This document shows positions 20,550-35,770 of a DNA stretch of 35,770 nt, piece after piece. The translations under genes and the position numbers were made by a program. Origin of the DNA: a virus; UHGV virus genome UHGV-0348126; one strand, given 5' to 3'. Each line of letters starts with the position of its first letter. The first letter of the stretch is position 1. Below the pieces are notes generated by a model, which saw nothing but the letters and a program-made list of their open reading frames with translations, was not told the DNA's origin and searched no databases.

Positions 20550-20628
20550 TTAGCCCCCTCTTAATTGCTGTTGGTCCTCTCAGATATGAGGGGAAGGGAT
20601 CTTAATGACAGTCTGTTTATTATTTCAG

Positions 20629-20886: not shown

Positions 20887-20900
20887 TATTGACCTCCAGA

Positions 20901-20926: not shown

Positions 20927-21036
20927 TTTGTTATGATTTCGTTAACGGCAGACATACAAAGCCCATCGTTAGGAAAATCCTAACCAGATTTTTTGAAAAA
21001 TGCAAGAATCATGTCGCTATCTTCGGCGAAAATCAT

Positions 21037-21789
21037 TTATCTCGTCACTTTTCTTAATTGCGCCTCAGCATATGCTTCTTCCTGCCAGCACTTTGTCACC
21101 AGTTTATCAATGACATCTGCATATCCTTTGTACCACTGATAATCCGTCAGGTCTGGTACCAGCTTCTGGACATGATGCCGCGCCAGTGTGGTTGGTAAAC
21201 GGCTAAACCGGTTTCCATTGCAACGCCCACAAATCTTATAAACAGGCGTGCCATGAAGCCGGGTCCTTTTTTCATCCAGGACAATACCTTTACCCTTACA
21301 CCCTCTGCACGCTGTGCTGGCTTCTCCCTTACCATGACAATGCTGACATAGTTCCTTCACCCACTCTTCCTTGATAACAGATTCCCCGCTTCTGGAGTGT
21401 TTCACCACTTCGCGCAATACATTATGAAATCCAGTACCAGCACAATGCTCACAGCGAGCCTTACTTGCCGCAGACCTGGAATAATCAGCAAAGGCAAAAT
21501 TCACAAGGTAAGGGATGATCTGTAACCGGGTTTCTTCACTCAATTTATTCAATGTCGGATTATCCAGTGCCATCGCGTAATTGAGCAGACCTTCAATCGC
21601 AAACTGAGGATCCTGAACACCAACTTTTGCCAGGAATAAGGCAAATCCAAGCGGTGCTTTCGACTGCACCATCCCCTGCGCAGCCATCACATCCGTAATC
21701 GTTAAACCACCCGAGCCTGTCGCCGGTGCGTCATCGCTCAGTTTTGGAGATTTTGGGGAGTAATATTTTGGTAAGGCTTCAAGGTTCAT
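21037..21789 (-). CDS. late-gene antiterminator Q
   Basis: 250-aa ORF with Cys-rich zinc-binding-like segment (CEHCAGTGF...CQHCHGKGE...CRGCKGKG...CGRCNG); located immediately upstream of the late promoter/terminator and lysis genes. Confidence 0.75.
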   Translation of the reverse strand: MNLEALPKYYSPKSPKLSDDAPATGSGGLTITDVMAAQGMVQSKAPLGFALFLAKVGVQDPQFAIEGLLNYAMALDNPTLNKLSEETRLQIIPYLVNFAFADYSRSAASKARCEHCAGTGFHNVLREVVKHSRSGESVIKEEWVKELCQHCHGKGEASTACRGCKGKGIVLDEKRTRLHGTPVYKICGRCNGNRFSRLPTTLARHHVQKLVPDLTDYQWYKGYADVIDKLVTKCWQEEAYAEAQLRKVTR

Positions 21790-21802
21790 GCTCGTTCTCC
21801 AC

Positions 21803-22798
21803 TTACGCCAGTACGCCTATTGCCAGCGCACGATCGATAAAACGAAATATCAGCTCCAGCTGGGAGCCATACTTCTCTTCAAATGCCACGGTATCCGCAT
21901 GCAGCTCGTCGTGATGCTTTCTGCACAAAGGCAACACAAAGAGGTCATGCGCTTTTGTACCCATTCCCCCCTGACCGTGGCCTATCAGGTGGTGGGGATC
22001 ATCAGCAGGCTTTCCACAACATGCGCACGGCTGTGTCTTAACCCAGCGCGTGTACTTTTCATTAACCCAGCGGCGACGTTTTGGGCGTAACATAAAAGAC
22101 TCCGGCGACTCCGGATCCACTTTCAGCGCCAGCACCTTTTTCGCCTTATCCTGGATGATGCTGGTGGCAGGAACCGAAGGCACAAGGTCACTTTCCCGGG
22201 TGACAGACGGCACAACAGGATTCGGTAATCTCAGTGCCTTACGGGCTGCACTTTCCGGTAAGGCATCCGCCAGATCATTACGAACCAGCCACCAGCACAG
22301 TTCCGGCATTGTCACAACGTGACTGTCATCAAAACCGAGATCCCGACGCACAACAGACAACACCCAGCGGGCACAGTTATCCGTTGCCATTGATTCCAGC
22401 CGTTCCGTGAACTGATCGCGCAGCTGGTTATCGCAGTGCCAGCACAGACGGATTGCGCCCGGAGCGTGTCGCATTGTTGTCATGTTCTCGCTGTGCCAGT
22501 CGGAATGAGGCCACTGGCAGCCTTTTTCACGAAGTAACCAGCTTTCAAGACATTCCACGCCACCAGCACGACGGATCACTGCCTCATTGCGGAACACGGC
22601 CCGAACAGCAGGATCATCCGCCAGCGGTTGTGATGCCGCCGGAACGGCACCACTGGCAAAAGATGAATAACGTTCTGGCTCAGGCTCCAGCAGGACACGC
22701 CCCTGCATAAACAGGGGCATCAGCTCTGAACCGGGTCTGAACAATACGATCCCCATACGCGGGGCAATTTCAGGGGTCAGTAATGCTCTCACGGTCAC
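21803..22798 (-). CDS. DUF968-family protein (YdfU-like), C-terminal HNH-like Cys/His motif
   Basis: 331-aa ORF; C-terminal CACCGKPADDPHHLIGHGQGGMGTKAHDLFVLPLCRKHHDELH; recalled as typical of the nin region of lambdoid prophages. Confidence 0.65.
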   Translation of the reverse strand: MTVRALLTPEIAPRMGIVLFRPGSELMPLFMQGRVLLEPEPERYSSFASGAVPAASQPLADDPAVRAVFRNEAVIRRAGGVECLESWLLREKGCQWPHSDWHSENMTTMRHAPGAIRLCWHCDNQLRDQFTERLESMATDNCARWVLSVVRRDLGFDDSHVVTMPELCWWLVRNDLADALPESAARKALRLPNPVVPSVTRESDLVPSVPATSIIQDKAKKVLALKVDPESPESFMLRPKRRRWVNEKYTRWVKTQPCACCGKPADDPHHLIGHGQGGMGTKAHDLFVLPLCRKHHDELHADTVAFEEKYGSQLELIFRFIDRALAIGVLA

Positions 22799-22799
22799 C

Positions 22800-23597
22800 T
22801 CAATGAACGGTATCGAGCAGCTTTAACAGCTCAGGGAATCGGGATTCGAAGAAATGCGGCTGCGTCTCGCGCGGATTTGCGGGACTGGTGATGTTCTTGC
22901 CGAACATGCAGCCTTTCGCTGTCAGCGACCAGAATTTTTTGATGTTGTTAATCGCGGTACGGCTGTATCGTTCGCGCTGCTCGACGATCCCCAGCTTCAC
23001 CATCTGGTGATATGCCTGATTAGCCGTCAGGCGGATACCATACTGCTTCAGCAGTGCACTCAGTGACAGCGTAGGGCGACTTGAGCCATCGGGTGCATCG
23101 GCAGGAGCATCAATTGCATAGCGCGGAGCCAGATTCGGTAAGCCAACAGCCTCCTGGAGTTTCTGACAAGCCCCAAGCACAGATGAGTTAGACAGGTTTA
23201 ATTCCCGACGCATAAAGTCCAGCAGAATCACACCAGCCTGCATCTTGTCAGCAGCCTGCCCGGATAATTTTTCCGGTGCGCTGGTTACCATATCGAAAGT
23301 ACGGATCACCTTCAGATGGAATGACGGGCTGATCCACATTGCATAGGCATACACCAGTTCTTTGCAGACATACGTCCCCTGGTTATTTCCGCCACGAATA
23401 ACGTTAACTGGCTCTATATTGACCGAGTTGCAAATCTGCAACTCGCTTATTAAACGTTCAGTTTGCTCATTGCGGAGCCAGAATGCAGGCTTATGCTTAT
23501 CCAGAGAACCGGCAGCCCTGTGCAGATCGTTCAGGCTGTAACGACCATAAGCATCACGACGAACTTCAATACCATCAATGACCATCAGATTATTCAT
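22800..23597 (-). CDS. KilA-N domain protein (start at internal ATG 23597)
   Basis: AGGAGA RBS 10 nt upstream of ATG at 23597 giving MNNLMVIDGIEVRRDAYGRYSLNDLHRAAG..., recalled as a KilA-N N-terminus; C-terminal half unassigned. Confidence 0.65.
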   Translation of the reverse strand: MNNLMVIDGIEVRRDAYGRYSLNDLHRAAGSLDKHKPAFWLRNEQTERLISELQICNSVNIEPVNVIRGGNNQGTYVCKELVYAYAMWISPSFHLKVIRTFDMVTSAPEKLSGQAADKMQAGVILLDFMRRELNLSNSSVLGACQKLQEAVGLPNLAPRYAIDAPADAPDGSSRPTLSLSALLKQYGIRLTANQAYHQMVKLGIVEQRERYSRTAINNIKKFWSLTAKGCMFGKNITSPANPRETQPHFFESRFPELLKLLDTVH

Positions 23598-23616
23598 ACT
23601 TCGTTTCTCCTCTTGA

Positions 23617-24006
23617 TCAGGCGGCTGCACCCGCCGTTTTCTCGTACTTACTGATGGTGATCTCGACCTTCCCTTTCGGGATAACCGGTCCCCACTCCAC
23701 CAGCATTCTTTTCACCTGTCTGTCGTCTTCCCACACACCCGCGTGGGTCAACGCGTCAAACAGCGCCTTGTTATAGTTGTCCAGATCGCGGATCCGGTTA
23801 TCCGGAGGAAACAACACGATCTCCACTGAAGCAGGTGCCGACGTTGGTTTTGGCAGACGACGTAACTGCTCAACTATTGCTGCGCACGCCGCGCTCTGAA
23901 ATTTTCGCCCCGCCGCGCTTATCAGGCTCTTACCAGCAAATTCCCCTTTGTTGGGGTGTCGCCAGTACGTGTTCACGCTGGGCGGGAAAGGCAGGATCAG
24001 CTTCAT
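23617..24006 (-). CDS. rusA: RusA Holliday junction resolvase
   Basis: 129-aa ORF; size and recalled RusA-family resemblance (MKLILPFPPSVNTYW...); nin-region location. Confidence 0.8.
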   Translation of the reverse strand: MKLILPFPPSVNTYWRHPNKGEFAGKSLISAAGRKFQSAACAAIVEQLRRLPKPTSAPASVEIVLFPPDNRIRDLDNYNKALFDALTHAGVWEDDRQVKRMLVEWGPVIPKGKVEITISKYEKTAGAAA

Positions 24007-24329
24007 ACTTTCAGGCCTCTCTCATGTAACCAGTGGGTTGCACGCAGCCTGGCGTTTTCCTCACCGGCAAGCAGTGAGCGGATAATCCCGACCGCCTCGC
24101 TGTCGTCGTCCTTCACCGCGGTATGAAGAGTGATACCCCGGGCCACGCCACGCTTTATCGTGATGACGCCTTTTTTCTCCAGTGCGCGAAGATGTTCCAC
24201 CGCTGCATTCACTGAACGGTATCCCAGCATGGTTGCCACCTCCTGATTGGTTGGCGGGAAGCCACGTTCTTTCTGGTAAGAAATCAGCATATCCAGCACC
24301 TGCTGCTGGCATTGAGTTAACGTCGTCAT
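24003..24329 (-). CDS. LexA-family DNA-binding-domain protein (no peptidase domain)
   Basis: 108-aa ORF; N-terminal region (LTQCQQQVLDMLISYQKERGFPPTNQEVATMLGYRSVNAAVEHLRALEKKGVI) resembles a LexA winged-helix; no S24 motifs; ATGA overlaps on both sides. Confidence 0.5.
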   Translation of the reverse strand: MTTLTQCQQQVLDMLISYQKERGFPPTNQEVATMLGYRSVNAAVEHLRALEKKGVITIKRGVARGITLHTAVKDDDSEAVGIIRSLLAGEENARLRATHWLHERGLKV

Positions 24330-24979
24330 GCCGCCATCTCCCTGACCAGTTTTTCCGCCTGCTGGCGAACCTGCGCCAGAAACGCCTCACCACATGCCTC
24401 AAGTTCATCGCGCCCGATGTAGCTGATTGCCGGTCCCTTCCAGGTCTTGTCGAAAACAGCAATAGCACCAGCGAAGAAAGCGCCTGTCGGCACCTGCTTC
24501 TCGTCCTTCGGTATAAACCAGGCAGGCAGTTCAAAACCAATACGCCCGCGAATAAAAGCAATATGATCTGCATCTTCCGGCCACCACACTTCGCTGGTGG
24601 CCGCTTTGATCAGGAAAACATAGCGCCCGCCCTTATCACGCATGGCACTGGCATGTTTCATGATGTAACGCATGCCGGTGATGTATTGCCCCTCATGCTG
24701 ACTGGCGCGGCTGTATGGGGGATTACCAAAGGCAGCACCTTTAAGCTCCGCAAGACGTTCTGACCAGTCATGCGCCAGCGCGTTATCTTCCGCCGTGTAA
24801 TACGCGGCACATTTGGCGTTATCACCGTCAGTAAACAGATCTAGAACAAACGGGCCAAACAGGGTGTTAATTCCCCAGAAAATGTTGTCCGGCGTGCGCC
24901 ACTGATCGCCCACTTCCTTCAGTTCATGGGCTGGTTTGTTCCGCAGCTCCACCAGCGCCTGGCAATATTTATTACTCAT
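24326..24979 (-). CDS. phage N6-adenine DNA methyltransferase (Dam-like orphan); start at internal ATG 24979
   Basis: Contains the NPPY catalytic motif (AAFGNPPYSRAS); the ATG at 24979 overlaps the upstream gene stop by 1 nt (MSNKYCQ...). Confidence 0.8.
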   Translation of the reverse strand: MSNKYCQALVELRNKPAHELKEVGDQWRTPDNIFWGINTLFGPFVLDLFTDGDNAKCAAYYTAEDNALAHDWSERLAELKGAAFGNPPYSRASQHEGQYITGMRYIMKHASAMRDKGGRYVFLIKAATSEVWWPEDADHIAFIRGRIGFELPAWFIPKDEKQVPTGAFFAGAIAVFDKTWKGPAISYIGRDELEACGEAFLAQVRQQAEKLVREMAA

Positions 24980-25473
24980 TAAGCCCCCACGTAATTCCCT
25001 GACAGATACCACTCTTCACCCGATGCAGCGCGCTTGCTGCTTTTCCGTAAGCACCGCTCACGATGCGCCAGAAAATTGTTTCGTTCTGGCTGGGAGTGGC
25101 TTTCACGGAATGCCTCCATCCACACCGTTGCAGCTCGACGGAATAAGCCCCTGGACTCCAGTTCTTCAGCCTGGCGGATCAGGCACAAAATCACCCGGGG
25201 GTCGTTAGTGCCGACATAGAAATTGCGCACAGGTCTGGTTTCACGAACAGATTGTGGTTCCGGCTCCTGCGCTCTCTCAGTCAGGCGCGGGAAATGTCTG
25301 CGTGTATCTCCTTCACAACGGTGAGCCACACGCCCACTCTGACGTAACTTGCTTGCTGACTGCAGAACGCGCTGCCGTGAGTAACCAGCAAAAGCATCCG
25401 CAATGTCTCCGGAAGTACACCCCGGATGGGCTTCAATGAATTTCTGAACTTCATTCAAAAGACTCACGATCAC
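24979..25473 (-). CDS. hypothetical regulator (possible PerC/ANR-like C-terminal region)
   Basis: 164-aa ORF; C-terminal LESRGLFRRAATVWMEAF is reminiscent of PerC/ANR regulators by memory only; ATGA overlap with the replication gene. Confidence 0.3.
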   Translation of the reverse strand: MIVSLLNEVQKFIEAHPGCTSGDIADAFAGYSRQRVLQSASKLRQSGRVAHRCEGDTRRHFPRLTERAQEPEPQSVRETRPVRNFYVGTNDPRVILCLIRQAEELESRGLFRRAATVWMEAFRESHSQPERNNFLAHRERCLRKSSKRAASGEEWYLSGNYVGA

Positions 25474-26288
25474 CCCCTGAATCCTGCCGGGATCTGGCTG
25501 TAGTCCACGTTGTCGTAACTGGATTTGAAGTACGGGTCCTCACGTCTGGCTGCAGATACCGCAGGAACTTCCCAGGATTCTTCGAAATGACGATCCGGAC
25601 CAAAGAACGTGACAGCCTGTTTCACAAATTGTGTGCCGCTATTGCCCATCGCAGATACCCAGCCCGCGTAGCGTTTCACACCTTCCAGCATGGTTTCGGG
25701 GTTTACTCCCTCATTCAAACGGGCTTTCCAGGCTTTGAAGGCTGCAGATTTTGAATTGCCACCAGCACGTTTGGGGTATGCCAGCCATGTCTGCTCAAAC
25801 TCCGGAGAGTATTCCGGTCGGTTTGAACGAACTCGCACAGACTCATCAGCAGATTCACCAACAGCTATTGGTTCATTGACTGGTTCTTTGACTGATTCAA
25901 AAGAGTGACTGGTTCTGGGTGAATCTCCTGCACTACCCCCTGGTGCAACTCCTGCACTACCTGGTGAATTTGCTGCACCAGATAGTGAATTATTTGCACT
26001 ACCCCCTAGTGAATCTCCTGCACCATCCAGATGAAGGAGATAGATATTACTTGAGTTACCTTTTTCACCTTTCCGGGTGACTTTTTTTACCAGCCCGGAC
26101 TCACAAAGGGCCGCAATATGATTCATCACAGAACGTTTGCTAATCTCGCACTGGTCAGCAATATGCTGGTAGCTGGGCCAGCACTCACCCTGATCACTGG
26201 CATTATCAGCCAGCTTGATCAGAACCAGTTTTCGCAATGGATTACCCACTCGAATTTTCATCGCTTTAACCATCAGCTCCATACTCAT
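25470..26288 (-). CDS. replication initiator (lambda O-like; N-terminal HTH, Gly/Ser/Ala/Pro linker, C-terminal domain)
   Basis: 272-aa ORF; N-terminal winged-helix-like region (RKLVLIKLADNASDQGECWPSYQHIADQCEISKRSVMNHIAALCESGLVKK); the linker GAGDSLGGSANNSLSGAANSPGSAGVAPGGSAGDSP is encoded by the iteron repeats, as in lambda O. Confidence 0.7.
   Translation of the reverse strand: MSMELMVKAMKIRVGNPLRKLVLIKLADNASDQGECWPSYQHIADQCEISKRSVMNHIAALCESGLVKKVTRKGEKGNSSNIYLLHLDGAGDSLGGSANNSLSGAANSPGSAGVAPGGSAGDSPRTSHSFESVKEPVNEPIAVGESADESVRVRSNRPEYSPEFEQTWLAYPKRAGGNSKSAAFKAWKARLNEGVNPETMLEGVKRYAGWVSAMGNSGTQFVKQAVTFFGPDRHFEESWEVPAVSAARREDPYFKSSYDNVDYSQIPAGFRG
25919..26023. repeat. five iteron-like direct repeats (candidate replication origin) inside the initiator gene
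   Basis: Plus-strand 15-mers GTGAATCTCCTGCAC (25919), GTGCAACTCCTGCAC (25943), GTGAATTTGCTGCAC (25964), GTGAATTATTTGCAC (25985), GTGAATCTCCTGCAC (26009); spacing 24/21/21/24 bp; an AT-rich stretch follows at 26030..26060. Confidence 0.6.
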
Positions 26289-26509
26289 GCTGCACCTCCG
26301 AGATGCTTCATGTTTTTTCCGGAGCGAAAGGCTATAAGCGGCATACTGACGCGGTAATTACGGCCCAGCGGTTCACAAACCACCTTCTGACATTCACGGT
26401 CAACCAGGCTAACACGTAGAACATGCCCTGCAGGCGTGGTGTACCACTGACCCGGACGAGGACAACGGAAAGTCTGATTGGTAAAACGTTTGAAAATATT
26501 CCGGATCAT
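26285..26509 (-). CDS. hypothetical protein
   Basis: 74-aa ORF with ATGA overlaps to Rha (upstream) and the replication initiator (downstream). Confidence 0.4.
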   Translation of the reverse strand: MIRNIFKRFTNQTFRCPRPGQWYTTPAGHVLRVSLVDRECQKVVCEPLGRNYRVSMPLIAFRSGKNMKHLGGAA

Positions 26510-27657
26510 TTGCGCCCCCTTACCTCTGAAGGGTTCAGCGACAAATTTATGAGGCAGGCCAGCGCCGAAGCATCATTAATATAGTCATATAAGCTAACAG
26601 CCAGCGGAGATTCGGCTTTTGCCAACATAGGATAAAGCTGCTGCAGCCAGACCTGATGAATTGATGAAATGTAGGAACAGAGAACGCTGGCGTTATGTGC
26701 AACGTCGCTCGGTACAGCGGGCTTTGAAAGCTGTTTCTCCATCTGGTTAAAGGCATTGATGTATGCCTCTTTGAACTGGGCAGCACGTTTACCCGTGAAA
26801 CCCATAGCAAGAAACGCAAAGCCGTCGCGGGTTATTTGATAGCAAGGTAGTTTGCGGCCTGTGCAATCGGTGTAATCACTCACCGAAAAATTGCGGGCAG
26901 TGAATGATGCGGAGCATTCAAGCGTGCGGATCTTTTTCAGTACATCGTCATGACGTTTGGAGAAGAAGTTGGCAACAGCCAGGGATGAAGTAACAGCCTG
27001 ACCATCAACGATGGCAATTTCAGGTTGAGTGAGGGTTGGGATCGTAGCCATGATGGCAGCCTCTTTGGTGATTTTAAATAACTCACCACCAAGGCTTTCC
27101 ACGACCTTATTGGTGGTGAGACGTACAGGGGTGGAAATACCGGTCACCAAAGAACCCGGCCCAACCGAAGTTGGCCCTGCACGCCCCACCATAATTTGGG
27201 CGTAATGCTGCTCATGACACAAAAAAACCGCAAGAGCGCGGTTGTGCGCTTTGGTGAATTCCGGGTTTCCACGCCCGGCACCCGCTTTATAAGGTGCCTG
27301 AACAGTGTAACGTCCCGGAATGGCAGAATCAATGTGCTGGTGGTCCTTCACACTCAACAAAATCACGCCTGAATTTCCACAAAGGACTAAAGCACTCATG
27401 CGGGTAGTCTTTGCGAAGATAGATAACGCGCTGTGTTTCTGGCTCCCAACGAATAACATGAACATAAAGTCCTCTTCCGTCACGAAACCAGCGGTTAAGT
27501 TCCTGCACAACTCGCCCCCCACAGTCAGGTAAAGTTCTCTGTGGTTACTTACAGCCAGGTGATTTGGTAATCTGCATTCATGCCGTAACAACAGGTGTTC
27601 AGCCACGCGGACCACCAGCTGTTGCGACCAACGGTTATTTGCCGTTAAACTGTTCAT
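26506..27657 (-). CDS. Rha-family regulatory protein; Rha-like domain occupies 26506..27051 (alternative start ATG 27051), preceded in frame by a 202-codon extension of unknown function
   Basis: C-terminal 181 aa (MATIPTLTQPEIAIVDGQAVTSSLAVANFFSKRHDDVLKKIRTLE...) recalled as Rha-like, with AAAGAGG RBS 9 nt upstream of ATG 27051; the full ORF start at 27657 overlaps the upstream gene stop as ATGA. Confidence 0.55.
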   Translation of the reverse strand: MNSLTANNRWSQQLVVRVAEHLLLRHECRLPNHLAVSNHRELYLTVGGELCRNLTAGFVTEEDFMFMLFVGSQKHSALSIFAKTTRMSALVLCGNSGVILLSVKDHQHIDSAIPGRYTVQAPYKAGAGRGNPEFTKAHNRALAVFLCHEQHYAQIMVGRAGPTSVGPGSLVTGISTPVRLTTNKVVESLGGELFKITKEAAIMATIPTLTQPEIAIVDGQAVTSSLAVANFFSKRHDDVLKKIRTLECSASFTARNFSVSDYTDCTGRKLPCYQITRDGFAFLAMGFTGKRAAQFKEAYINAFNQMEKQLSKPAVPSDVAHNASVLCSYISSIHQVWLQQLYPMLAKAESPLAVSLYDYINDASALACLINLSLNPSEVRGRK

Positions 27658-28205
27658 GCGTTAGTTTCTCCACAGACACAAAACGCCACGACGCCCGGAG
27701 CTGCACACTCGCGGGCGTCACTCTTTTCTGGAACGCAGAAAATTTTGTAGACCAGTGCCGCATGTTCCTGGAGCTTCGAAATCGACAGATACAACTCATC
27801 ATTAATTGCTGTCTGCTCATGTGGCTCCACTACCCCGTCTTCGATTGCCGAACGAATCTGCTTTGAGTAACTCCCGATCTGTTCAATAACTTCCAGTAGA
27901 CGTTGGTTGATATCAGCGTTCTCTACTTCCTCAATTTCTGGAAGTGATACAAACACCCCACCAGCAGACTGTGCGACAGCATCCGCAATGTGGTGAGTAC
28001 CAGCCGCACGCTGTAAAACCATTGCCCATCCCAACGGAAAAAACTGATCGCCATCGGCACGAAGGCGGTTGAATAAAGCGTTCTCTGTTACATCCAGCCA
28101 CTCAGCAGCTTCAGCGTAACCCCCCGGCAACGCCGCGATAGTTTTTCTGACAGCTTTCACGTACCACTCAGGCTGTTTTTCCACTTTCCAGTGATGCTTA
28201 CCCAC
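27654..28205 (-). CDS. putative CII-like / YdaT-like early regulator
   Basis: 183-aa ORF directly after cro, overlapping its stop; assignment by position and weak recall only. Confidence 0.35.
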   Translation of the reverse strand: MGKHHWKVEKQPEWYVKAVRKTIAALPGGYAEAAEWLDVTENALFNRLRADGDQFFPLGWAMVLQRAAGTHHIADAVAQSAGGVFVSLPEIEEVENADINQRLLEVIEQIGSYSKQIRSAIEDGVVEPHEQTAINDELYLSISKLQEHAALVYKIFCVPEKSDARECAAPGVVAFCVCGETNA

Positions 28206-28458: not shown

Positions 28459-28555
28459 ATAACCTCCACATATTGCGTGATGAGCATATTATTTCACGCA
28501 AATATTTTGCGCAAGTTGATTTGCTTAACGCGCAATAAAGAAATGTAATAAACGC
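28459..28555. promoter_or_regulatory. divergent immunity control region (OR-like): PR for cro plus operator repeats
   Basis: Minus-strand TTGCGC (plus 28509..28514) -17 bp- TAATAT (plus 28486..28491) fits a sigma70 promoter for cro; inverted repeat TTGCGTGA-N13-TCACGCAA (28472..28500) overlaps the -10; TTGCTTAACGCGCAA (28521..28535) matches TTGC-N7-GCAA. Confidence 0.55.
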
Positions 28556-29248
28556 ATGAACATAGGAAACCGAGTCAGACAACTTCGCCAGGCGAAGAAC
28601 ATGAAAATCGCCGATCTCGCTGAAGCAATAGGAGTGGATGCGGCGAATATCTCGCGCCTGGAAACAGGTAAGCAGAAACAATTCACTGAACAAGCCCTGA
28701 GTAATATTGCCAGGAGCTTAGGTGTTGATATTGCTGATCTCTTTACCTCAGACGTCAAAAGTAATACTGTATGTAAAAACAGTATTAGTGAGGATGTTGC
28801 GCAGGTGAAGGATGTATTCCGTATTGAAATGCTGGATGTCAGTGCCAGTGCGGGAAATGGCCTTATCCAGGGCGGTGATGTCATTGATGTGATTCATGCC
28901 ATTGAATACAGAACTGATAATGCTGTATCGATGTTTGGCGGACGACCAGCCAATCACATTAAAGTTATCAACGTTCGTGGGGACAGTATGTGTCCAACCA
29001 TTGAGCCAGGAGATCTCATCTTCGTTGATGTCAGTATCAATCAGTTTGATGGAGATGGTATCTATGTATTTGGTTTTGATGATAAAATTTATGTCAAACG
29101 ACTGCAAATGATACCTGACAAACTACTGGTGATTTCTGATAACCAGATTTACCGTGAATGGGGAATTACCAGCGAAAATGAACACCGGTTTATGGTCTTT
29201 GGAAAGGTCTTAATCAGCCAGTCACAAACCCTTAAACGACACAATTAA
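28556..29248 (+). CDS. CI-like repressor (HTH plus S24 LexA-like autopeptidase domain)
   Basis: 230-aa ORF; N-terminal HTH (RVRQLRQAKNMKIADLAEAIGVDAANISRLETGK); C-terminal S24 motifs GDSMCPTI (Ser) and VKRL (Lys). Confidence 0.9.
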   Translation: MNIGNRVRQLRQAKNMKIADLAEAIGVDAANISRLETGKQKQFTEQALSNIARSLGVDIADLFTSDVKSNTVCKNSISEDVAQVKDVFRIEMLDVSASAGNGLIQGGDVIDVIHAIEYRTDNAVSMFGGRPANHIKVINVRGDSMCPTIEPGDLIFVDVSINQFDGDGIYVFGFDDKIYVKRLQMIPDKLLVISDNQIYREWGITSENEHRFMVFGKVLISQSQTLKRHN

Positions 29249-29268
29249 CCCTTACTTCCTCATCAATT

Positions 29269-29293
29269 AGCCACCCGAAGGTGGCTTTTCATT
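29269..29293 (+). terminator. intrinsic terminator after cI
   Basis: AGCCACC-CGAA-GGTGGCT perfect 7-bp stem followed by TTTCATT, 20 nt after the cI stop. Confidence 0.65.
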
Positions 29294-29303
29294 ACCCACC
29301 AAA

Positions 29304-29356
29304 TTGCATATCTCGCAATAAAAACACTTGCACAATGCGCAACTTCATTTTATCTT
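29304..29356 (+). promoter_or_regulatory. OL-like operators with candidate leftward early promoter
   Basis: TTGCATATCTCGCAA (29304..29318) and TTGCACAATGCGCAA (29328..29342) share TTGC-N7-GCAA with the OR-side site; TTGCAC -17 bp- TATCTT (29351..29356) is a possible -35/-10. Confidence 0.45.
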
Positions 29357-29787
29357 TCTTTCCAGACCAACAAACAAGGTACTAACAAAATTTGGTTGTA
29401 ACACGGCGTATGGCACATGCGTCGTTAGCGGTCTGGGGACGTTAAAGGGGACAATCCACTCCTTGCTCGGGCAAACAAACCAGGTAGCCGGAATGTGCAA
29501 GTCAATGATGATGCTGATAAGACGCCTAACCAGCGTGGCGATCCGGTTTGACGCCTGGGAAGAGACCAGGGTGCAACGATGAGGGCATTTATGGAGCCGC
29601 GACAAAGTGTGGTGCCGTAACTGGCTAAGTGCTCTCAGCGTTGTGGTGAAGGCGCAGGCTGATGCGCGAAAGACATTGCAGCTATTGCGGAAAAGAGCTG
29701 TTCGGCGGGGCAATTAAACGCCCGTGAGAGTCTGAAATAACCGCAAGCCGGAGATCAGCACCGGTCACCACAACAGCCACTGCTTTG

Positions 29788-29835
29788 GCGGTACCAGTTT
29801 GTACACTTGCTTCCGGCTGGTACCGCTCTTTTTAC
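29788..29835 (+). terminator. leader hairpin with T-run (terminator-like) carrying a boxA-like sequence
   Basis: GCGGTACCAG (29788..29797) pairs with CTGGTACCGC (29817..29826), then TCTTTTTAC; the 3' arm and T-run read CGCTCTTTTTAC, close to nut/rrn boxA (CGCTCTTA / GCTCTTTAACAA). Confidence 0.4.
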
Positions 29836-29970
29836 AAAACAGAGAAGAGCATCACCGGACGACGGGCTCATAACCCAATCCATCCGGGCGGCTGCCACCG
29901 CAGGTGTTCTTCTCTGTTTTGTGGAGAAACCAACCGACCTTGCAGGGTCGATATGATGAGGAGCAGCAAA

Positions 29971-30333
29971 ATGGCTAGCGAACGCAGTACTGATGTGCAG
30001 GCATTTATCGGGGAGCTGGACGGCGGCGTATTTGAAACCAAAATCGGCGCAGTTCTCAGTGAAGTCGCTTCCGGTGTGATGAACACGAAAACCAAAGGGA
30101 AGGTCTCACTCAACCTGGAAATCGAACCATTTGATGAGAACCGTGTGAAAATCAAACACAAACTCTCATATGTTCGCCCGACTAACCGCGGGAAAATTTC
30201 CGAAGAAGACACCACCGAAACGCCGATGTATGTCAATCGCGGTGGTCGCCTGACTATTCTGCAGGAAGACCAGGGACAGTTACTGACTCTTGCCGGTGAA
30301 CCTGACGGAAAACTCCGCGCAGCAGGTCGTTAA
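29971..30333 (+). CDS. hypothetical early protein, YfdP-like (start at internal ATG 29971)
   Basis: GAGGAG RBS 7 nt upstream of ATG 29971 (MASERSTDVQAF..., 120 aa); first gene after the structured leader; the upstream part of the track ORF is unlikely to be coding. Name by memory of the E. coli CPS-53 gene order. Confidence 0.5.
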   Translation: MASERSTDVQAFIGELDGGVFETKIGAVLSEVASGVMNTKTKGKVSLNLEIEPFDENRVKIKHKLSYVRPTNRGKISEEDTTETPMYVNRGGRLTILQEDQGQLLTLAGEPDGKLRAAGR

Positions 30334-30398
30334 TATCGTTTTTAATTAACTGATTATTTATCTCATCACTGAATATCTTTATATAGTGAGGACTTATT

Positions 30399-31223
30399 AT
30401 GTCTCAGAACTTAGACGCAACCGCAATTAATCAAATCCATGCCCTTATTTCTGCTCAGGGTGTTAATGAAATTATCAGTAAGATTGGTGCCGATGCTGTG
30501 GCATTGCCTGAGAATTTCCGCATTCATGATCTGGAAAAATTTAATTTAAATCGCTTCCGTTTCCGTGGTGCGCTTTCCACTGCCAGCATCGATGACTTTA
30601 CCCGTTATTCTAAAGATCTTGCAGATGAAGGCACCCGCTGCTTTATCGATGCTGATAATATGCGTGCCGTCAGTGTGCTTAACCTAGGTACTATTGATGA
30701 ACCAGGTCACGCAGATAACACCGCCACACTCAAACTGAAAAAGACAGCACCGTTCTCTGCTCTGTTGTCTGTTAACGGCGAGCGTAACTCCCAGAAGTCA
30801 CTGGCAGAATGGATTGAAGACTGGGCCGACTATCTTGTGGGCTTTGATGCTAATGGTGACGCTATTCAGGCAACAAAAGCGGCTGCGGCTGTCCGTAAAA
30901 TCACGATTGAAGCAAACCAGACCGCTGATTTTGAAGATAATGACTTCAGCGGCAAACGCTCCCTGATGGAGTCTGTCGAAGCGAAGACCAAAGACATTAT
31001 GCCAGTGGCATTTGAATTTAAATGCGTTCCGTTTGAAGGTCTGAAAGAACGTCCGTTTAAATTACGCCTCAGTATTATCACTGGCGATCGTCCTGTACTG
31101 GTTCTGCGCATTATTCAGCTGGAGGCGGTGCAGGAAGAAATGGCTAACGAATTTCGTGATCTGCTTGTTGAGAAATTCAAGGACAGCAAAGTAGAAACCT
31201 TTATTGGTACTTTCACCGCCTGA
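30399..31223 (+). CDS. yfdQ: DUF2303-family protein, YfdQ-like
   Basis: 274-aa ORF; length and position match what I recall of E. coli CPS-53 YfdQ. Confidence 0.55.
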
Positions 31224-31350
31224 TTTCATTACTGCAAATGCCCCTGCGGGGGCATTTATGGAAACGTAATTTACTCAATAATCGCCGGATGGTGAGGGAT
31301 TCTTTTTACCAGAATTCAGCGCGGTGCAGCGCATATACGTGGAGAACAAA

Positions 31351-31887
31351 ATGTCATTTATTAAAACTTTTTCCGGGAAGCATTTTTATTATGACAAGAT
31401 AAATAAAGACGACATCGTTATTAACGATATCGCGGTTTCCCTTTCAAATATCTGCCGCTTTGCCGGTCATCTTTCTCACTTCTACAGCGTCGCCCAACAT
31501 GCGGTGCTTTGCAGCCAGCTGGTGCCTCAGGAATTTGCTTTTGAAGCGTTAATGCATGATGCAACAGAAGCGTATTGCCAGGACATCCCCGCACCACTGA
31601 AACGCCTTCTTCCTGACTATAAACGGATGGAAGAAAAAATAGACGCCGTAATCCGTGAGAAATACGGGTTACCTCCGGTTATGAGCACGCCAGTGAAATA
31701 TGCCGATCTCATTATGCTGGCAACCGAACGCCGCGATCTCGGGCTTGATGATGGCTCTTTCTGGCCTGTACTGGAAGGTATCCCGGCAACAGATATGTTC
31801 AAAGTGATTCCACTGGCACCGGACCATGCCTACGGGATGTTTATGGAACGTTTTAACGAGTTATCGGAGTTACGCAAATGCGCATGA
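31351..31887 (+). CDS. yfdR: HD-domain 5'-deoxynucleotidase, YfdR-like (start at internal ATG 31351)
   Basis: GGAG RBS 8 nt upstream of ATG 31351 giving MSFIKTFSGKHFYY... (178 aa); HD motif LMHDATEAY with upstream His (AGHLSHFYSVAQHAVL); recalled match to E. coli YfdR. Confidence 0.7.
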   Translation: MSFIKTFSGKHFYYDKINKDDIVINDIAVSLSNICRFAGHLSHFYSVAQHAVLCSQLVPQEFAFEALMHDATEAYCQDIPAPLKRLLPDYKRMEEKIDAVIREKYGLPPVMSTPVKYADLIMLATERRDLGLDDGSFWPVLEGIPATDMFKVIPLAPDHAYGMFMERFNELSELRKCA

Positions 31888-32240
31888 ATGTTTTCGAAAT
31901 GGAAGGGTTTCTTCGTGGGAGATGTGTACCGCGAGACCTGAAAGTGAATGAAACAGATGCTGAATACCTGGTGCGTAAATTCGATGCGCTTGAAGCTAAA
32001 TGTGCGGCACTGGAAAACAAAGTAATACCAGTGTCAACTGCACTGCCACCAGCAAATGAAAGTGTTTTGTTATTCGATGCTAACGGAGAAGGCTGGCTAA
32101 TTGGCTGGCGTTCTCTCTGGTACACCTGGGGGCAAAAAGAAACCGGAGAATGGCAGTGGACATTTCAGGTCGGGGACCTTGAAAACGTCAATATCACTCA
32201 CTGGGCAGTAATGCCGAAAGCACCGGAGGCTGGAGCATAA
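31878..32240 (+). CDS. hypothetical protein, YfdS-like
   Basis: 120-aa ORF; ATG overlaps the upstream stop; Trp-rich C-terminal half. Confidence 0.5.
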   Translation: MRMNVFEMEGFLRGRCVPRDLKVNETDAEYLVRKFDALEAKCAALENKVIPVSTALPPANESVLLFDANGEGWLIGWRSLWYTWGQKETGEWQWTFQVGDLENVNITHWAVMPKAPEAGA

Positions 32241-33064
32241 TGATCACGTTTACCGACAAAGAACTGATTAAAGAAATTAAAGAGCGAATTGGGAGCCTGG
32301 ACGTTCGAGACAATATTGAGCGCCGTGCTTATGAAATTGCACTGGCATCACTGGAAGCAGATCCAGTTGCTTATATTTTCAAACATCCGGCCGGGAAATT
32401 ATTCTGGGCTTTAACGGATGAAAGCAATAAAGAGCAAGCGGACGTTATTCCTGTTTATGCTGCCGCGCCTGCGTCGGTTGTGCCGGATAATGCATCAGAG
32501 CCTCTTGCTTATGCTTACAAAGAGCTTACGCCTGAGATTATGCGCAACCATTTAGCTGTATTCGAGCGATATGGAATAGCCCCAAACGATAGCTCTACCA
32601 CAATTCAGGCACTGCGAATCGCGCTGGATGGCATAGAGCGGAGCGACGCCATGCTTCATGGTGCTGAACCTGTAAGCCAAACTTACAAGTTGCCAGTTAA
32701 TACACCTTGCCAAGATGCGCCAGCCCATATCTGGCTGCAAACAGCTGGAGTATGGCCAGAAGATGGCGAGTTAAGCGAATTAACGTGGTGCAGCCACAAT
32801 CAGCACCATGATGACACACTATATGTTCGAGCTGACCTTGTGAATGGCAACTATCCGGTAATTCCGGATGGTTGGATAAGCTGTAGTGAGCGAATGCCGG
32901 AAGACGGGCAGGAAGTTGTTGTTCAAACTCATTCAGGGTGGCGTTACATCGCATTCTACGAATCCCACTCTGGATTGTTCTATGACAGTCCTGAGGGTGA
33001 TGTCGAGTATGTTCTCGTAACCCACTGGATGCCACTACCGGAGCCGCCGCAGGAGGTGAAGTAA
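32240..33064 (+). CDS. DUF551-domain protein
   Basis: 274-aa ORF; C-terminal WISCSERMPEDGQEVVVQTHSGWRYIAFYESHSGLFYD...VTHWMPLPEPP recalled as DUF551-like; TAATG overlaps on both sides. Confidence 0.55.
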   Translation: MITFTDKELIKEIKERIGSLDVRDNIERRAYEIALASLEADPVAYIFKHPAGKLFWALTDESNKEQADVIPVYAAAPASVVPDNASEPLAYAYKELTPEIMRNHLAVFERYGIAPNDSSTTIQALRIALDGIERSDAMLHGAEPVSQTYKLPVNTPCQDAPAHIWLQTAGVWPEDGELSELTWCSHNQHHDDTLYVRADLVNGNYPVIPDGWISCSERMPEDGQEVVVQTHSGWRYIAFYESHSGLFYDSPEGDVEYVLVTHWMPLPEPPQEVK

Positions 33065-33258
33065 TGAACAACTTAATGACAACTAAACAAGTCGCCGATT
33101 TCTGTGGTGTTTCAGTATCGACAGTTCTTCGCTGGAACAGCGTAAACAGGAGAACTGGCCAGAAATACAGGCCTGACTTTCCAGATCCTGATATTAAATC
33201 CTGCCCAAATAAATGGGCATCACACAAGATTTACAGATTTGCGGGAGTGATTGAGTAA
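33064..33258 (+). CDS. excisionase / AlpA-family DNA-binding protein
   Basis: 64-aa ORF, last gene of the early-left operon; HTH-like KQVADFCGVSVSTVLRW followed by a FPDP motif; GGAGGTGAAG RBS. Confidence 0.55.
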   Translation: MNNLMTTKQVADFCGVSVSTVLRWNSVNRRTGQKYRPDFPDPDIKSCPNKWASHKIYRFAGVIE

Positions 33259-33540
33259 AATGTATTAGCTTAGATGTGAGCTGACACATCTATGCTTAGA
33301 TGCCAAACCTAATCTGAGCGTCCACTCTTTACCAAGAGCGGACGTTACCAATGACCATATGACATGAATCGATAAGATCAAAACATTATCGCCAAGAAAT
33401 GTCATACCATTGATACAAATAAAATTGATTACCCCCTTACTCTTGTTGAAAAGTTAGTCGTAGAGTACCTATCGCAATGTAATCAGCTTTAATCATCTGA
33501 AAATTACTCCTTAAAAATTAGCTTTTATATACTGAACAAA

Positions 33541-34260
33541 TTAAATCTCTGTTTCTTTTCCTGCTCGGCTCAACCAATACTCCATTGTTTGAGTATGAAT
33601 CTTTTCAGCGTATATTTTATCAATTAATTTATCTTGTTTTTCTTTAATGACTTCACGCAGTGAATCATATAACATAAAAAAACGTTCATCATCTTCCTCA
33701 TTATTACCGTAATTTATTTGATTGAGTTCTGAAAAAATATGATAGTACCTTTTTTTCTTGGTCCCCGGCAATATTAAAACCAAGCCACATTGATCATATT
33801 CGAATTCACCTTTATGGGCAGCAAAGTTATGTCTAACATTCATAATAGAGTCATGTAAATCTCTGTATTTTTCTGGCACATGCTTTCTCTGCAATGTGAA
33901 TCGACGCCCTTTCGCCTCTGTAAAACACTTACCGTAAGTAACAACTTTTGATATAAACAAAGACTTTAATATTAGATTCTTTTCTAAATCCGGATAAATA
34001 AAGTGTTGTTCTTTATTAATGTTATTACAAATGTTTTTTATTATATTCTCCCAACCAATAACATTCCGAAGATCTTTATCAAGCAACTGTAAGGCCACAT
34101 ATTGTTCTACAAAACGGCCTTTTAAAGGTATTCGTGGTAATATTACACCTTTCTGCTTATAAATTCTTTCTATCGTATTATCTGGATATTGGATCTTCCT
34201 TATTTCTATTCCGTCTTCTTCTGATACCCTTACTAATGGTTCATTTTTTAACTTTGACAT
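33541..34260 (-). CDS. hypothetical cytoplasmic protein in AT-rich cargo island (candidate defence / abortive infection gene)
   Basis: 239-aa ORF, visibly AT-rich codon usage unlike flanking phage genes, flanked by AT-rich intergenic regions; no transmembrane segment; contains RHNFAAH (R-x5-H); no family recognised. Confidence 0.55.
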   Translation of the reverse strand: MSKLKNEPLVRVSEEDGIEIRKIQYPDNTIERIYKQKGVILPRIPLKGRFVEQYVALQLLDKDLRNVIGWENIIKNICNNINKEQHFIYPDLEKNLILKSLFISKVVTYGKCFTEAKGRRFTLQRKHVPEKYRDLHDSIMNVRHNFAAHKGEFEYDQCGLVLILPGTKKKRYYHIFSELNQINYGNNEEDDERFFMLYDSLREVIKEKQDKLIDKIYAEKIHTQTMEYWLSRAGKETEI

Positions 34261-34546: not shown

Positions 34547-35770
34547 TCAGTTTGAATCAGATATAGTACAATTAACAATCGATTCAACCCTCTTCCACCA
34601 TGCCAGGTAAGCTTTACGCTGTTCTTCTAGATAATCGCTCTTATCATAAACTTGCCATACCCCTGGCAGCTTATGACCAAGCATAATTTCTGCGATATGA
34701 GGCGCAGTAAGATCAGAAAAATTTGTTCGAGCTGTACGTCTCAAGTCATGAAGAGACCAATGAGGGAATTGATATCCTAAACGCCGCCATGCGTACTGCA
34801 TTAAATTGTAAGGCAGCGACTGCAATGATGTCCGACCAACGGGTTCCCTGCTTCCTTCCTTAGTAAAAAGCATATCTGAACCATTGTTCATAGAGATAGC
34901 GTACTTTATAAGCTCTTCAACCGGTTCAATAATCGGCCGCTTTAGCGGTTCGCCTGTTATCTCCCCAGTCTTATGTCGTTCTGGTGGTACAGTCCATACT
35001 TTATTAATGAAATCAAAATCGTCCACCCGGGCGGTAATAAGCTCTGAACTACGGCAACCAAAATGCAGCAATAGTTTAATGAAGGCCCGGTATTTAGGAA
35101 CCATTCGAGAACCATCGATCGCAGCATAAAGGATTTTAATTTCATCATGTGTCAGAAACCGTTTCTTCTGACCTTTACGGATATCCATATCTTTACCCGT
35201 GATATCCGACAGCGGGCGAGTTTCAATGAGCTTTCTCTTATACGCCCAGACATGGGCCTGCTTTGCGTTAATTAGCAATCGGTCTGCTATTGCTGGAGTC
35301 TTAGTGCTAAGAGGCTCCAGGACTTCTAACCAATCATGCAATGTAGCTGCATCGTGAGGGATATTCCCGATTTTAGAGAACAGGTGCAGCTCAAACGAGC
35401 GGAGTATCTGTTCAGAACCTTTTTTATTTTTTACACAATATGCTTCATACCAAGCACGGATCACAGACTCTACCGTCATGGCTTCAGTAGCTTTTCGTTT
35501 TTCAGCCTGCTTGACCAATCGTGGATTACGGTTTGACTCGAGTTCACCACGAAGACGGATAACTTCTTCTCTGGCCTCTTTTAATCCAGTTGCCGGGTAA
35601 GTTCCGATATCAAGACGCTCACCTTTCCCTGCCCATTGATAACGATATTGGAACACTACGCGACCTTTCGGTGATACTCTGACAGACAGACCATCACGAT
35701 CGGATTTAACCAAAACCTTATCACGTTCCTTTCCAACGACTGAACGCAACCACGCATCAGACAGCGCCAT
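34547..35770 (-). CDS. tyrosine integrase, P4-type (N-terminal DUF4102-like arm-binding domain)
   Basis: 407-aa ORF; N-terminus MALSDAWLRSVVGKERDKVLVKSDRDGLSVRVSPKGRVVFQYRYQWAGKGERLDIGTYPATGLKEAREE; catalytic region HDLRRTARTN...LGHKLPGVWQVYDKSDY; start codon is the last 3 nt of the window. Confidence 0.9.
   Translation of the reverse strand: MALSDAWLRSVVGKERDKVLVKSDRDGLSVRVSPKGRVVFQYRYQWAGKGERLDIGTYPATGLKEAREEVIRLRGELESNRNPRLVKQAEKRKATEAMTVESVIRAWYEAYCVKNKKGSEQILRSFELHLFSKIGNIPHDAATLHDWLEVLEPLSTKTPAIADRLLINAKQAHVWAYKRKLIETRPLSDITGKDMDIRKGQKKRFLTHDEIKILYAAIDGSRMVPKYRAFIKLLLHFGCRSSELITARVDDFDFINKVWTVPPERHKTGEITGEPLKRPIIEPVEELIKYAISMNNGSDMLFTKEGSREPVGRTSLQSLPYNLMQYAWRRLGYQFPHWSLHDLRRTARTNFSDLTAPHIAEIMLGHKLPGVWQVYDKSDYLEEQRKAYLAWWKRVESIVNCTISDSN

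Follow-up and report, generated by a model that had tools for sequence, protein, structure and literature searches.

The yfdP-yfdQ-yfdR-yfdS cassette in the putative early-left operon of a predicted SfV/mEp460-like prophage

Genes and control region of the operon

The window, that is, the whole stretch of 35,770 nucleotides that was analysed (UHGV virus genome UHGV-0348126), contains the yfdP-yfdQ-yfdR-yfdS cassette followed by a fifth ORF and an excisionase gene (Table 1). The identification made from the sequence was correct, and the cassette is an ordinary one that is already known. Comparison by BLASTP with the proteins of the CPS-53 element of E. coli K-12 MG1655 gave identities of 98.3% for YfdP (120/120 residues), 99.3% for YfdQ (274/274), 97.8% for YfdR (178/178) and 95.8% for YfdS (120/120). 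The HD-domain enzyme and the DUF2303 protein, which the sequence-only reading had likened to YfdR and YfdQ, are therefore full-length orthologues of these K-12 proteins. YfdQ matched DUF2303 (PF10065) with E=2e-92 and 309.7 bits (cutoff 26.6) over profile positions 2-269 of 269. YfdP matched phrog_204 (1e-49) but had no Pfam match because PF27127, which is precomputed on all of its close homologues, was absent from the Pfam copy searched. Near-identical DNA in other genomes carries the RefSeq names yfdP, yfdQ, "yfdR: 5'-deoxynucleotidase" and DUF551.

Table 1. Features of the early region of the window (positions in the window)
Feature	Position	Strand	Description
O-like/DnaD-like initiator	25470-26288	-	sole replication gene; YfdN/PerC-like gene directly after
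Chi cluster	19229-27965	-	12 same-strand sites (GCTGGTGG) over lysis, Q, nin, replication and cII genes; adjoins terminase end
OR, between cro-like and cI-like genes	28473-28535		operator-like; TTGCGTGATGAGCAT (28473-28487, 1 mismatch), TTGCTTAACGCGCAA (28521-28535)
cI-like repressor, 230 aa	28556-29248	+	Peptidase_S24 6e-19, HTH_3 1e-10 (Pfam); same strand as yfd operon
Intrinsic-terminator-like hairpin and T-run	29269-29286	+	directly 3' of cI
OL and candidate pL	29304-29356	+	two exact TTGCN7GCAA: 29304-29318, 29328-29342
Candidate pL hexamers	29328-29333; 29351-29356		-35 TTGCAC, 17-nt spacer, -10 TATCTT; consensus match 7/12
Structured 5' leader	29786-29970	+	hairpin 1 at 29788-29826, terminator-like, U-run after
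Leader hairpins 2 and 3	29829-29925; ~29937-29952	+	hairpin 2 an inverted repeat with 25-bp stem; then Shine-Dalgarno GAGGAG
yfdP, 120 aa	29971-30333	+	PF27127/phrog_204; predicted long N-terminal helix, then three-stranded sheet
yfdQ, 274 aa	30399-31223	+	DUF2303 (PF10065)/phrog_210; K-12 YfdQ orthologue
yfdR, 178 aa	31351-31887	+	HD-domain phosphohydrolase, phrog_318; RefSeq name 5'-deoxynucleotidase
yfdS, 120 aa	31878-32240	+	DUF551 at C-terminus; 10-nt overlap with yfdR end
Fifth ORF, mosaic 274-aa protein	32240-33064	+	YfdT-like aa 1-42; variable middle phrog_6847; DUF551 aa 211-271
Excisionase (xis), phrog_1553	33064-33258	+	last operon gene; start overlaps fifth-ORF stop (TAATG)

The reported presence of DUF551 (PF04448) in the operon was borne out by the fifth ORF, which scored 58.3 bits, above the cutoff, and marginally by YfdS, whose 22.3 bits barely exceed the cutoff of 22. 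Whereas the first four proteins aligned with their K-12 counterparts over the full length at 96-99% identity, the similarity of the fifth ORF to YfdT (81% identity by BLASTP) was confined to residues 1-42. Assignment of this ORF as YfdT was rejected, since it encodes 274 rather than 101 amino acids, is unrelated to YfdT beyond residue 42 and ends in DUF551. In its full length the fifth ORF is missing from all 5426 complete E. coli genomes examined, where coverage reached 81% at best, and from all 84 related loci. This particular ORF, a chimera of the YfdT N-terminus and DUF551, is a rare combination. The five proteins had been described as translationally coupled, which was true of part of the operon: overlaps were found at three of the five junctions (yfdR-yfdS, 10 nt; yfdS-fifth ORF and fifth ORF-xis, TAATG each), whereas 65 and 127 nt separate yfdP from yfdQ and yfdQ from yfdR, with a Shine-Dalgarno sequence for each gene.

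The cI-like repressor has the same amino acid sequence as that of phage mEp460 (100% identity). Of the 21 TTGCN7GCAA sites found in the window with at most one mismatch, four fall within the 181 nt flanking cI. The yfd genes run from the cI side towards xis with operators on both sides of cI, and this arrangement points to a repressor-controlled early-left operon. The pL promoter is a candidate only, because its hexamers were read by eye and were missed by the promoter scan. Since a terminator-like hairpin lies between candidate pL and yfdP, expression of the cassette from pL is likewise presumed.

The leader upstream of yfdP folded with a minimum free energy of -87.1 kcal/mol (z=-6.5), and none of 200 shuffled sequences folded as well. 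In 33 of 85 sequences, including the window, homology to the window begins at positions 29785-29788. The leader was retained in all of the 85 sequences except K-12, and its alignment comprised 50 unique sequences that differed from each other by only a few percent. Rfam gave no match at E<=1 to the 600-nt leader. A boxA-like sequence after hairpin 1 (CGCTCTTTTTA) was considered as a nut site and rejected, as it is not conserved and many loci read CGTCCTTTTTA. A minus-strand ORF of 122 aa, annotated in mEp460, was taken to be non-coding because it has no PHROG family, a TTG start and no PGAP call.

Recombination genes, Chi sites and the YfdP-YfdQ core

Of 5426 complete E. coli genomes, 3022 carry the cassette (leader plus yfdPQR, 56%), and many sequenced phages have it as well. 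The spacing of yfdP, yfdQ and yfdR is fixed, with yfdP present in 84/84 related loci and yfdR in 79/84. A YfdP/YfdQ pair was detected in Xanthomonas phage CP2. Phage ArgO145 has a complete Gam-RecT-Exo-SSB module with such a pair directly after it. A cII/cro/cI layout followed by YfdP-YfdQ was also seen in Klebsiella and Xenorhabdus prophages. No recognisable YfdR accompanies the pair in ArgO145, and the same is probably true of the Xenorhabdus prophage. DnaA binding therefore cannot account for the core of the cassette. It may be concluded that the unit consists of the structured leader and an ancient YfdP-YfdQ core, to which YfdR is a frequent addition and the DUF551 genes a mosaic tail.

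Homologues of N, cIII, Gam, Bet and Exo were not found by Pfam and PHROG searches among the early-region ORFs. The same searches of all ORFs from 17.4 to 35.8 kb revealed no annealing protein (Bet, RecT, Erf or Sak), exonuclease, SSB or anti-RecBCD protein. The sequence-only reading had placed the operon "instead of lambda-type recombination genes"; such genes are indeed lacking in the window, but the cassette is not a substitute for them, since ArgO145 has both the Rec module and the YfdP/YfdQ pair. Likewise, the cassette was not regarded as an alternative to the recombination module in PMC12315714.

The position of the cassette, which is the usual one of a Rec module, would also suit a cryptic role in recombination or repair, in which YfdQ, either alone or together with YfdP, would fill the Bet/Exo slot as a single-strand annealing or DNA-repair protein that has escaped recognition. 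A solved YfdQ homologue (PDB 9o7m, "YfdQ Protein") was deposited with 36 chains, and large oligomers are also formed by annealing proteins; no citing paper was found for this entry. The AF2 model of YfdQ (pLDDT 76) had no significant fold match in a library of releases to 2026-04-08, which did not include 9o7m. The YfdP model matched no known fold, and neither model matched the folds of annealing proteins. A cryptic recombination function is considered very improbable.

The window contains 18 Chi sites against 1.40 expected; none of 100 shuffles reached 18, and 15 of these sites are on the minus strand. The genes cI, cro, cII and Q are all present in a lambdoid regulatory layout, and RusA is encoded in the nin region. 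No P-, DnaC- or helicase-type gene was found beside the O-like initiator, and the layout was the same in related loci. Lambdoid phages of the "LLS functional type" were recently described as lacking a Rec module, rich in Chi and aided by RecBCD, with a yfdP/yfdQ/yfbR-like trio and with an O homologue as the sole component of the replication module (Genome Res 2025, PMC12315714). By its layout, the absence of Rec genes and the strand-biased Chi sites, the window belongs to this "no Rec module / high Chi" class. A link between the cassette and loader-less replication modules was also seen in the 84 E. coli loci and was rejected as evidence, as these loci are close relatives and do not provide independent evidence; the association of the cassette with single-gene replication in E. 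coli may reflect common descent of close prophages.

YfdR, DnaA and the possible function of the cassette

The sequence-only reading had stated that overexpression of yfd genes inhibits replication initiation and that YfdR binds DnaA, and both statements are found in the literature. Purified K-12 YfdR binds domain I of DnaA in a Phe46-dependent manner and competes with DiaA and DnaB (Noguchi & Katayama 2016, PMC4776307). In the same study, initiation at oriC was inhibited in vivo by multicopy yfdQR together with yfdS or yfdT, and in vitro in extracts oversupplied with YfdQRST. The yfdP gene was not needed for the multicopy effect, and YfdQ, YfdS and YfdT did not bind DnaA or YfdR strongly. Deletion of yfdQRST in K-12 changed neither initiation nor hydroxyurea resistance, and the authors noted that the overexpression effects were possibly artefacts (PMC4776307). 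With yfdQ, yfdR and yfdS, the window carries the smallest combination of genes that was active in K-12. From the identity of 96-99% to the K-12 proteins, we infer that DnaA binding and oriC inhibition would carry over to the proteins of the window.

The H50...H69-D70...D motif of YfdR aligned with those of the HD protein 2gz4 and of YfbR, so that the metal-binding motif is intact. This motif would allow YfdR to act as a nucleotide enzyme, its HD site dephosphorylating dNMPs or degrading a signalling or defence nucleotide; nucleotide pools would then be adjusted or the host response blunted early in infection, and the binding to DnaA would be an incidental result of overexpression. Phage early regions commonly hold HD-domain nucleotide enzymes, and the PHROGs and RefSeq family names (deoxyribonucleoside 5'-monophosphate phosphatase and 5'-deoxynucleotidase) agree with such an activity. 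However, YfdR's affinities for nucleotides lie far below YfbR's and its function is "elusive", according to the statement in PMC4776307 that cites Zimmerman 2008. Moreover, YfdR scored 24.2 bits with the Pfam YfbR-like/HD family (PF12917), just under the cutoff of 25.9, and 19.9 bits with the NCBIfam YfbR equivalog NF003009, for which the cutoff is 122. With 23% identity and scores below both of these cutoffs, YfdR was rejected as a YfbR orthologue and is an HD-superfamily relative instead. Neither the five proteins nor the low-GC ORFs had a PADLOC match, and a defence or anti-defence role for the five proteins was rejected on these grounds. A nucleotide enzyme would also leave unexplained the need for yfdQ and yfdS or yfdT and the conserved YfdP/YfdQ pair, and this explanation is regarded as unlikely.

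A benefit to the lysogen was also considered, in which the cassette would be cargo that helps the host to withstand, for example, oxidative, acid or alkylation stress, or that controls other prophages, and would have little role in lytic growth. Deletion of CPS-53, yfdQ or yfdS alters the sensitivity of K-12 to H2O2 or MMS (PMC4776307), production of phage SW1 is affected by yfdQ (preprint 10.1101/413146), and more than half of the E. coli genomes have kept the cassette, which also persists in the decayed CPS-53. However, in intact prophages the yfd genes share an operon with xis and lie downstream of the operators of the repressor, so that a stable lysogen should not express them. The occurrence of YfdQ homologues in Vibrio, Xanthomonas, Pseudomonas and Acinetobacter phages also speaks for a phage function, and cargo of this kind seems still less likely than a nucleotide enzyme.

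A host-takeover or nucleotide-pool role of the cassette had been suggested, and it is treated here as a hypothesis. Its preferred form is that, in the early-left operon of an SfV/mEp460-like prophage, YfdR, YfdQ and YfdS would damp initiation at host oriC for the benefit of a phage that has only O and relies on RecBCD and Chi. On loss of repressor, pL would transcribe the operon, and YfdR would occupy the Phe46 patch of DnaA domain I, which is also used by DiaA and DnaB. Together with YfdQ and YfdS, it would damp host initiation, and replication resources would be spared or redirected to the phage with its single O-like initiator, whose recombination would depend on host RecBCD and Chi. YfdP-YfdQ would be an older two-gene unit whose activity may be separate from the DnaA effect. 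This proposal is tentative and falls a little short of being probable.

In a more elaborate version, take-over would have two layers. YfdR, YfdQ and the DUF551 protein, acting on the DnaB/DiaA patch, would shut oriC and free DnaB-DnaC for the loader-less phage. The ancient YfdP-YfdQ pair, with YfdQ as a large homo-oligomer as in 9o7m, would provide an activity that temperate and other phages across Gammaproteobacteria have in common, and the leader would be a cis-acting attenuator that times expression. This version is doubtful, being about as improbable as the cargo explanation.

The cassette is among the commonest prophage gene sets of E. coli, and interference with DnaA, reported from K-12, is its only known activity; its role in phage growth is a modest question. 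No phage-infection experiment on the cassette was found in the literature that was searched, where the functional data are all from multicopy or overexpression in K-12. Since the arrangement is known in mEp460 and other plaque-forming phages, intact phage contexts for testing already exist; direct experiments are possible in the cultivable phages mEp460, SfV, SfII and LLS, which carry the same genes, and the window adds little to this question. As useful by-products, the analysis defines the unit more cleanly and assigns this prophage to the Rec-less, Chi-rich class that was described recently.

Comparison with known systems

E. coli YfbR, a dCMP phosphohydrolase, shares with YfdR the HD-domain fold family and the conserved metal-binding H, HD and D residues, whereas DnaA binding was reported as an additional property of K-12 YfdR. 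The yfdP-Q-R-S-T-torI genes of K-12 CPS-53 (KpLE1) resemble the operon of the window in gene order, strand and an excisionase-type gene that closes the operon. However, CPS-53 is decayed and lacks cI, cro and pL, and its homology to the leader starts only 19 nt before yfdP. In addition, its fifth gene encodes the 101-aa YfdT, and TorI is unrelated to the Xis of the window, with no match by BLASTP.

The cassette was already described in the early-left operons of SfV, ST64B, LLS and phiNP. The layout from cI to yfdP, yfdQ and the HD-protein gene in SfV (orf29-32), mEp460 (gp32-35), ST64B (gp35-37) and LLS (gp37-39) is the same as in the window, whereas the genes between yfdR and xis differ phage by phage among SfV-type and lambdoid operons. 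YfdP, YfdQ, YfdR and YfdS of mEp460 are 95-100% identical to those of the window, and the virion genes of the window are ~97% identical to those of SfV, SfII and vB_EcoM-689R6. The window is predicted to be a lambdoid prophage of the SfV/mEp460 type that has a Mu-type tail. With the LLS type it shares the absence of Rec genes, Chi sites on the late-gene strand near the packaging end, a single O-like gene and the yfd trio; it differs from this type in its Mu-like contractile tail and in the presence of RusA, and the main text of PMC12315714 does not mention SfV-type phages by name.

Identity of the yfd genes and layout of the prophage

The five ORFs of the cassette were aligned by BLASTP to the proteins of CPS-53, the cryptic prophage of E. 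coli K-12 MG1655 (NC_000913.3). YfdP, YfdQ, YfdR and YfdS matched their K-12 counterparts over the full length with 98.3%, 99.3%, 97.8% and 95.8% identity, respectively, and the fifth ORF matched YfdT at residues 1-42 only (81%). The identity of the yfd genes is essentially certain; the sequence-only reading had recognized them as relatives of the K-12 Yfd proteins, and it had placed the operon at 29971-33064, which are exactly the yfdP start and the fifth-ORF stop. In Pfam searches, YfdQ matched DUF2303 (2e-92), DUF551 was found in both YfdS and the fifth ORF, and the HD/YfbR-like match of YfdR fell slightly below the cutoff. YfdR was also considered as an equivalog of YfbR, which was ruled out (19.9 bits against a cutoff of 122; 23% identity). 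The supposed translational coupling of all five genes held for the distal part, in which yfdR-yfdS, yfdS-fifth ORF and fifth ORF-xis overlap, but not for yfdP-yfdQ and yfdQ-yfdR, where spacers of 65 and 127 nt intervene; after these spacers, yfdQ and yfdR each have their own ribosome-binding site.

The window covers the greater part of a temperate prophage, in reversed orientation relative to the lambda map.

Features of the prophage and of the region around the yfd cassette
Feature	Position	Strand	Remark
Tail (Mu-like), head and terminase genes	1-17.3 kb	-	~97% identity to Shigella phages SfV, SfII, SfI and Escherichia phage vB_EcoM-689R6
170-aa ORF	4948-5460	-	Mid tail block
Lysis genes, Q antiterminator, DUF968/HNH, KilA-N, RusA, LexA-DNA-binding-domain protein, Dam, PerC/YfdN-like gene	within 17.4-28.5 kb	-	
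Single O-like/DnaD-like replication gene, Rha-type regulator, CII-like, Cro-like gene	within 17.4-28.5 kb	-	After PerC/YfdN-like gene
383-aa ORF	26506-27657	-	PGAP: Rha family phage regulatory protein
C4 antisense RNA	27109-27196	-	Rfam, 83.6 bits
isrK Hfq-binding RNA	27221-27297	-	Rfam, 67 bits
TTGCN7GCAA	28473		One mismatch; between cro and cI
TTGCN7GCAA	28521		Exact; between cro and cI
cI-like S24 repressor	28556-29248	+	
Terminator-like hairpin	29269-29286		After cI
TTGCN7GCAA	29304		Exact; past the hairpin
TTGCN7GCAA	29328		Exact; past the hairpin
Leader	29786-29970	+	185 nt; directly upstream of yfdP
yfdP	29971-30333	+	After cI
yfdQ	30399-31223	+	
yfdR	31351-31887	+	
yfdS	31878-32240	+	
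Fifth ORF	32240-33064	+	
xis	33064-33258	+	After the yfd genes
Low-GC gene	33541-34260	-	239 aa; matches phrog_8440 (unknown function)
Integrase	34547-35770	-	Reaches the window end

The low-GC gene between xis and int has a GC content of 36-39%, compared with ~50% in neighbouring regions, had no match in Pfam, NCBIfam or PADLOC, and was found in only 3 of 84 related loci; it looks like acquired cargo. The 170-aa ORF in the tail block lies in another low-GC island (41%), has a hydrophobic, signal-peptide-like N-terminus and no PADLOC match, and may be a moron. The C4 and isrK matches both fall inside the 383-aa ORF and coincide with its Pfam Phage_ASH stretch (aa 117-213). Two readings fit: these RNAs overlap genuine coding sequence, or the annotated CDS is too long and the Rha protein begins further downstream. 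The layout resembles antirepressor control units of the P1/P7 c4-ant or Gifsy isrK type.

Operator-like sites, candidate promoter and leader

Four of the 21 TTGCN7GCAA-type sites in the window fall in the 181 nt that adjoin cI on its two sides, which is how OR and OL would be expected to look. Overlapping the second OL site is a pair of hexamers, TTGCAC and TATCTT, spaced 17 nt apart, that makes a weak sigma-70 candidate. A pL could lie here; this placement is tentative because the hexamers were picked by eye and were not reported by the consensus scan. In the ~600 nt between this site and yfdP, neither a PGAP gene nor an Rfam match was found.

The leader folds at -87.1 kcal/mol (z=-6.5 versus shuffled controls) into three hairpins: the first is terminator-like and has a U-run, the second has a stem of 25 bp, and the third is small. 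The leader may act as an attenuator or as a processing site, or be the remnant of a terminator. It is kept in all related loci except K-12. Because the left edge of homology to the window, a recombination boundary, is commonest at 29785-29788 (33 of 85 sequences, window included; other break points lie at ~29630, at ~29384 or within cI), it may be concluded that the leader is part of the cassette and not of the immunity region. The interval between cI and the leader was also found to be a cargo insertion site (L002, 4254-5339, and other related loci), where one strain has a ParA-family gene and other loci have varied unrelated ORFs.

Relation to recombination genes

The sequence-only reading regarded the yfd module as replacing lambda-type recombination genes. 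The window indeed contained no gene for an annealing protein, exonuclease, SSB or anti-RecBCD function, and RusA was its sole recombination-related gene. However, the module is not a strict substitute, since phage ArgO145 carries both: its gene order, inspected directly, is Kil, Gam-like, RecT, exonuclease, SSB, YfdP homologue (59% identity) and YfdQ homologue (53%). For LLS, ST64B and phiNP, the yfdP/yfdQ/HD trio has been reported to lie in the early-left operon (Genome Research 2025, PMC12315714). According to that study, it is common in lambdoid early-left operons, is neither restricted to nor universal in phages lacking a Rec module, and is unlikely to encode recombination proteins because ArgO145 has trio-type genes together with a Rec module. 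A hidden recombination function of the yfd genes is very improbable. The models of YfdQ (pLDDT 76) and YfdP (pLDDT 70) matched none of Rad52, Red-beta, RecT, Erf and Gam, and gave no informative fold match in a library of releases to April 2026 without 9o7m. This PDB entry, titled 'YfdQ Protein', contains 36 chains of one 274-aa YfdQ homologue (YfdQ profile, E=3e-59); no paper on it was found. A very large homo-oligomer, if true of 9o7m, would be a useful clue to YfdQ function.

Chi (GCTGGTGG) occurred 18 times, at 8659-32046. The expected number is 1.40, and all 100 shuffled sequences had fewer than 18. Fifteen of the sites are on the minus strand, 12 of them clustered at 19.2-28.0 kb (19229-27965), adjoining the terminase end. 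As worked out from strand and position, these 12 are in the active orientation for RecBCD entering at the terminase side if the packaging end is there. Since the window is Chi-rich and lacks Rec genes, it was placed in the 'LLS functional type' (PMC12315714), with which it shares a replication module of an O homologue only and from which it differs by its Mu-type tail.

Proposed role, spread and origin of the cassette

The statement in the sequence-only reading that an overexpressed yfd cluster inhibits replication initiation, with YfdR binding DnaA, proved accurate (Noguchi & Katayama 2016, PMC4776307). In that work, yfdQ-yfdR-yfdS-yfdT was obtained as a multicopy suppressor of hda-185, and multicopy supply inhibited initiation in wild-type, seqA, DARS and diaA backgrounds. 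The minimal set yfdQ, yfdR and yfdS is intact in the window. The operon would be derepressed together with pL, YfdR with YfdQ and YfdS would damp DnaA-dependent initiation at oriC, and in a phage that has a single replication gene and lacks recombination genes, this could free host replication factors. Resting on K-12 overexpression data and genomic context, this is tentatively the best-supported mechanism, with a chance of being correct that falls somewhat short of even. Against it, deletion of the yfd genes leaves initiation in K-12 unaffected (PMC4776307), the YfdP/YfdQ core is not accounted for, and no phage experiment was found in the literature searched. Regarding a catalytic nucleotide role of YfdR, the HD motif is intact, and the nucleotide affinity is much below that of YfbR (Zimmerman et al. 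2008, as cited in PMC4776307); such a role is unlikely.

The module has already been described, is very common and is available in cultivable phages. Leader plus yfdPQR (29786-31887) matched 3022 of 5426 complete E. coli genomes at no less than 90% identity, with at least 80% of the query covered in 2452 of them. PADLOC gave no match for any of the five yfd-operon proteins. A benefit of the yfd genes to the lysogen is considered quite unlikely. The region 29250-33300 had full or partial matches in 421 phage records, among them Stx2c phages, 2H10, cdtI, Ayreon and mEp460; the last forms plaques, and its repressor and that of the window are identical. YfdQ homologues were found in 184 phage records of Escherichia, Salmonella, Vibrio, Xanthomonas, Pseudomonas, Halomonas and Acinetobacter.

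Among the 84 related loci (80 IMG/VR contigs, K-12 CPS-53, one E. coli prophage, vB_EcoM-689R6 and mEp460), yfdP-yfdQ-yfdR spacing is fixed, with yfdP in all, yfdR in 79 and YfdS in 50. Adjacent YfdP and YfdQ also follow cII/cro/cI in Klebsiella and Xenorhabdus prophages and occur in Xanthomonas phage CP2 (39% and 38% identity). Because the pair recurs outside E. coli and the ArgO145 gene following yfdQ is not YfdR, YfdP and YfdQ appear to be an ancient core to which YfdR is a frequent addition. The whole fifth ORF was found in none of the 84 loci and in none of the complete E. coli genomes. Just past yfdS lies a mosaic junction, where a conserved N-terminus of ~42 residues is followed by differing bodies; a similar mosaicism has been described for Ea22 proteins (PMC10834534).

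In 44 related loci, a 330-aa single replication protein (e.g., L071, 1976-2968) is encoded upstream of the cassette. K-12 YfdO (L001, 8879-9247) matches the C-terminal part of this protein, and K-12 YfdM aligns with ~90 residues at the N-terminus of the Dam methylase sequence that represents these loci. CPS-53 thus carries this SfV-type early region in decayed form.
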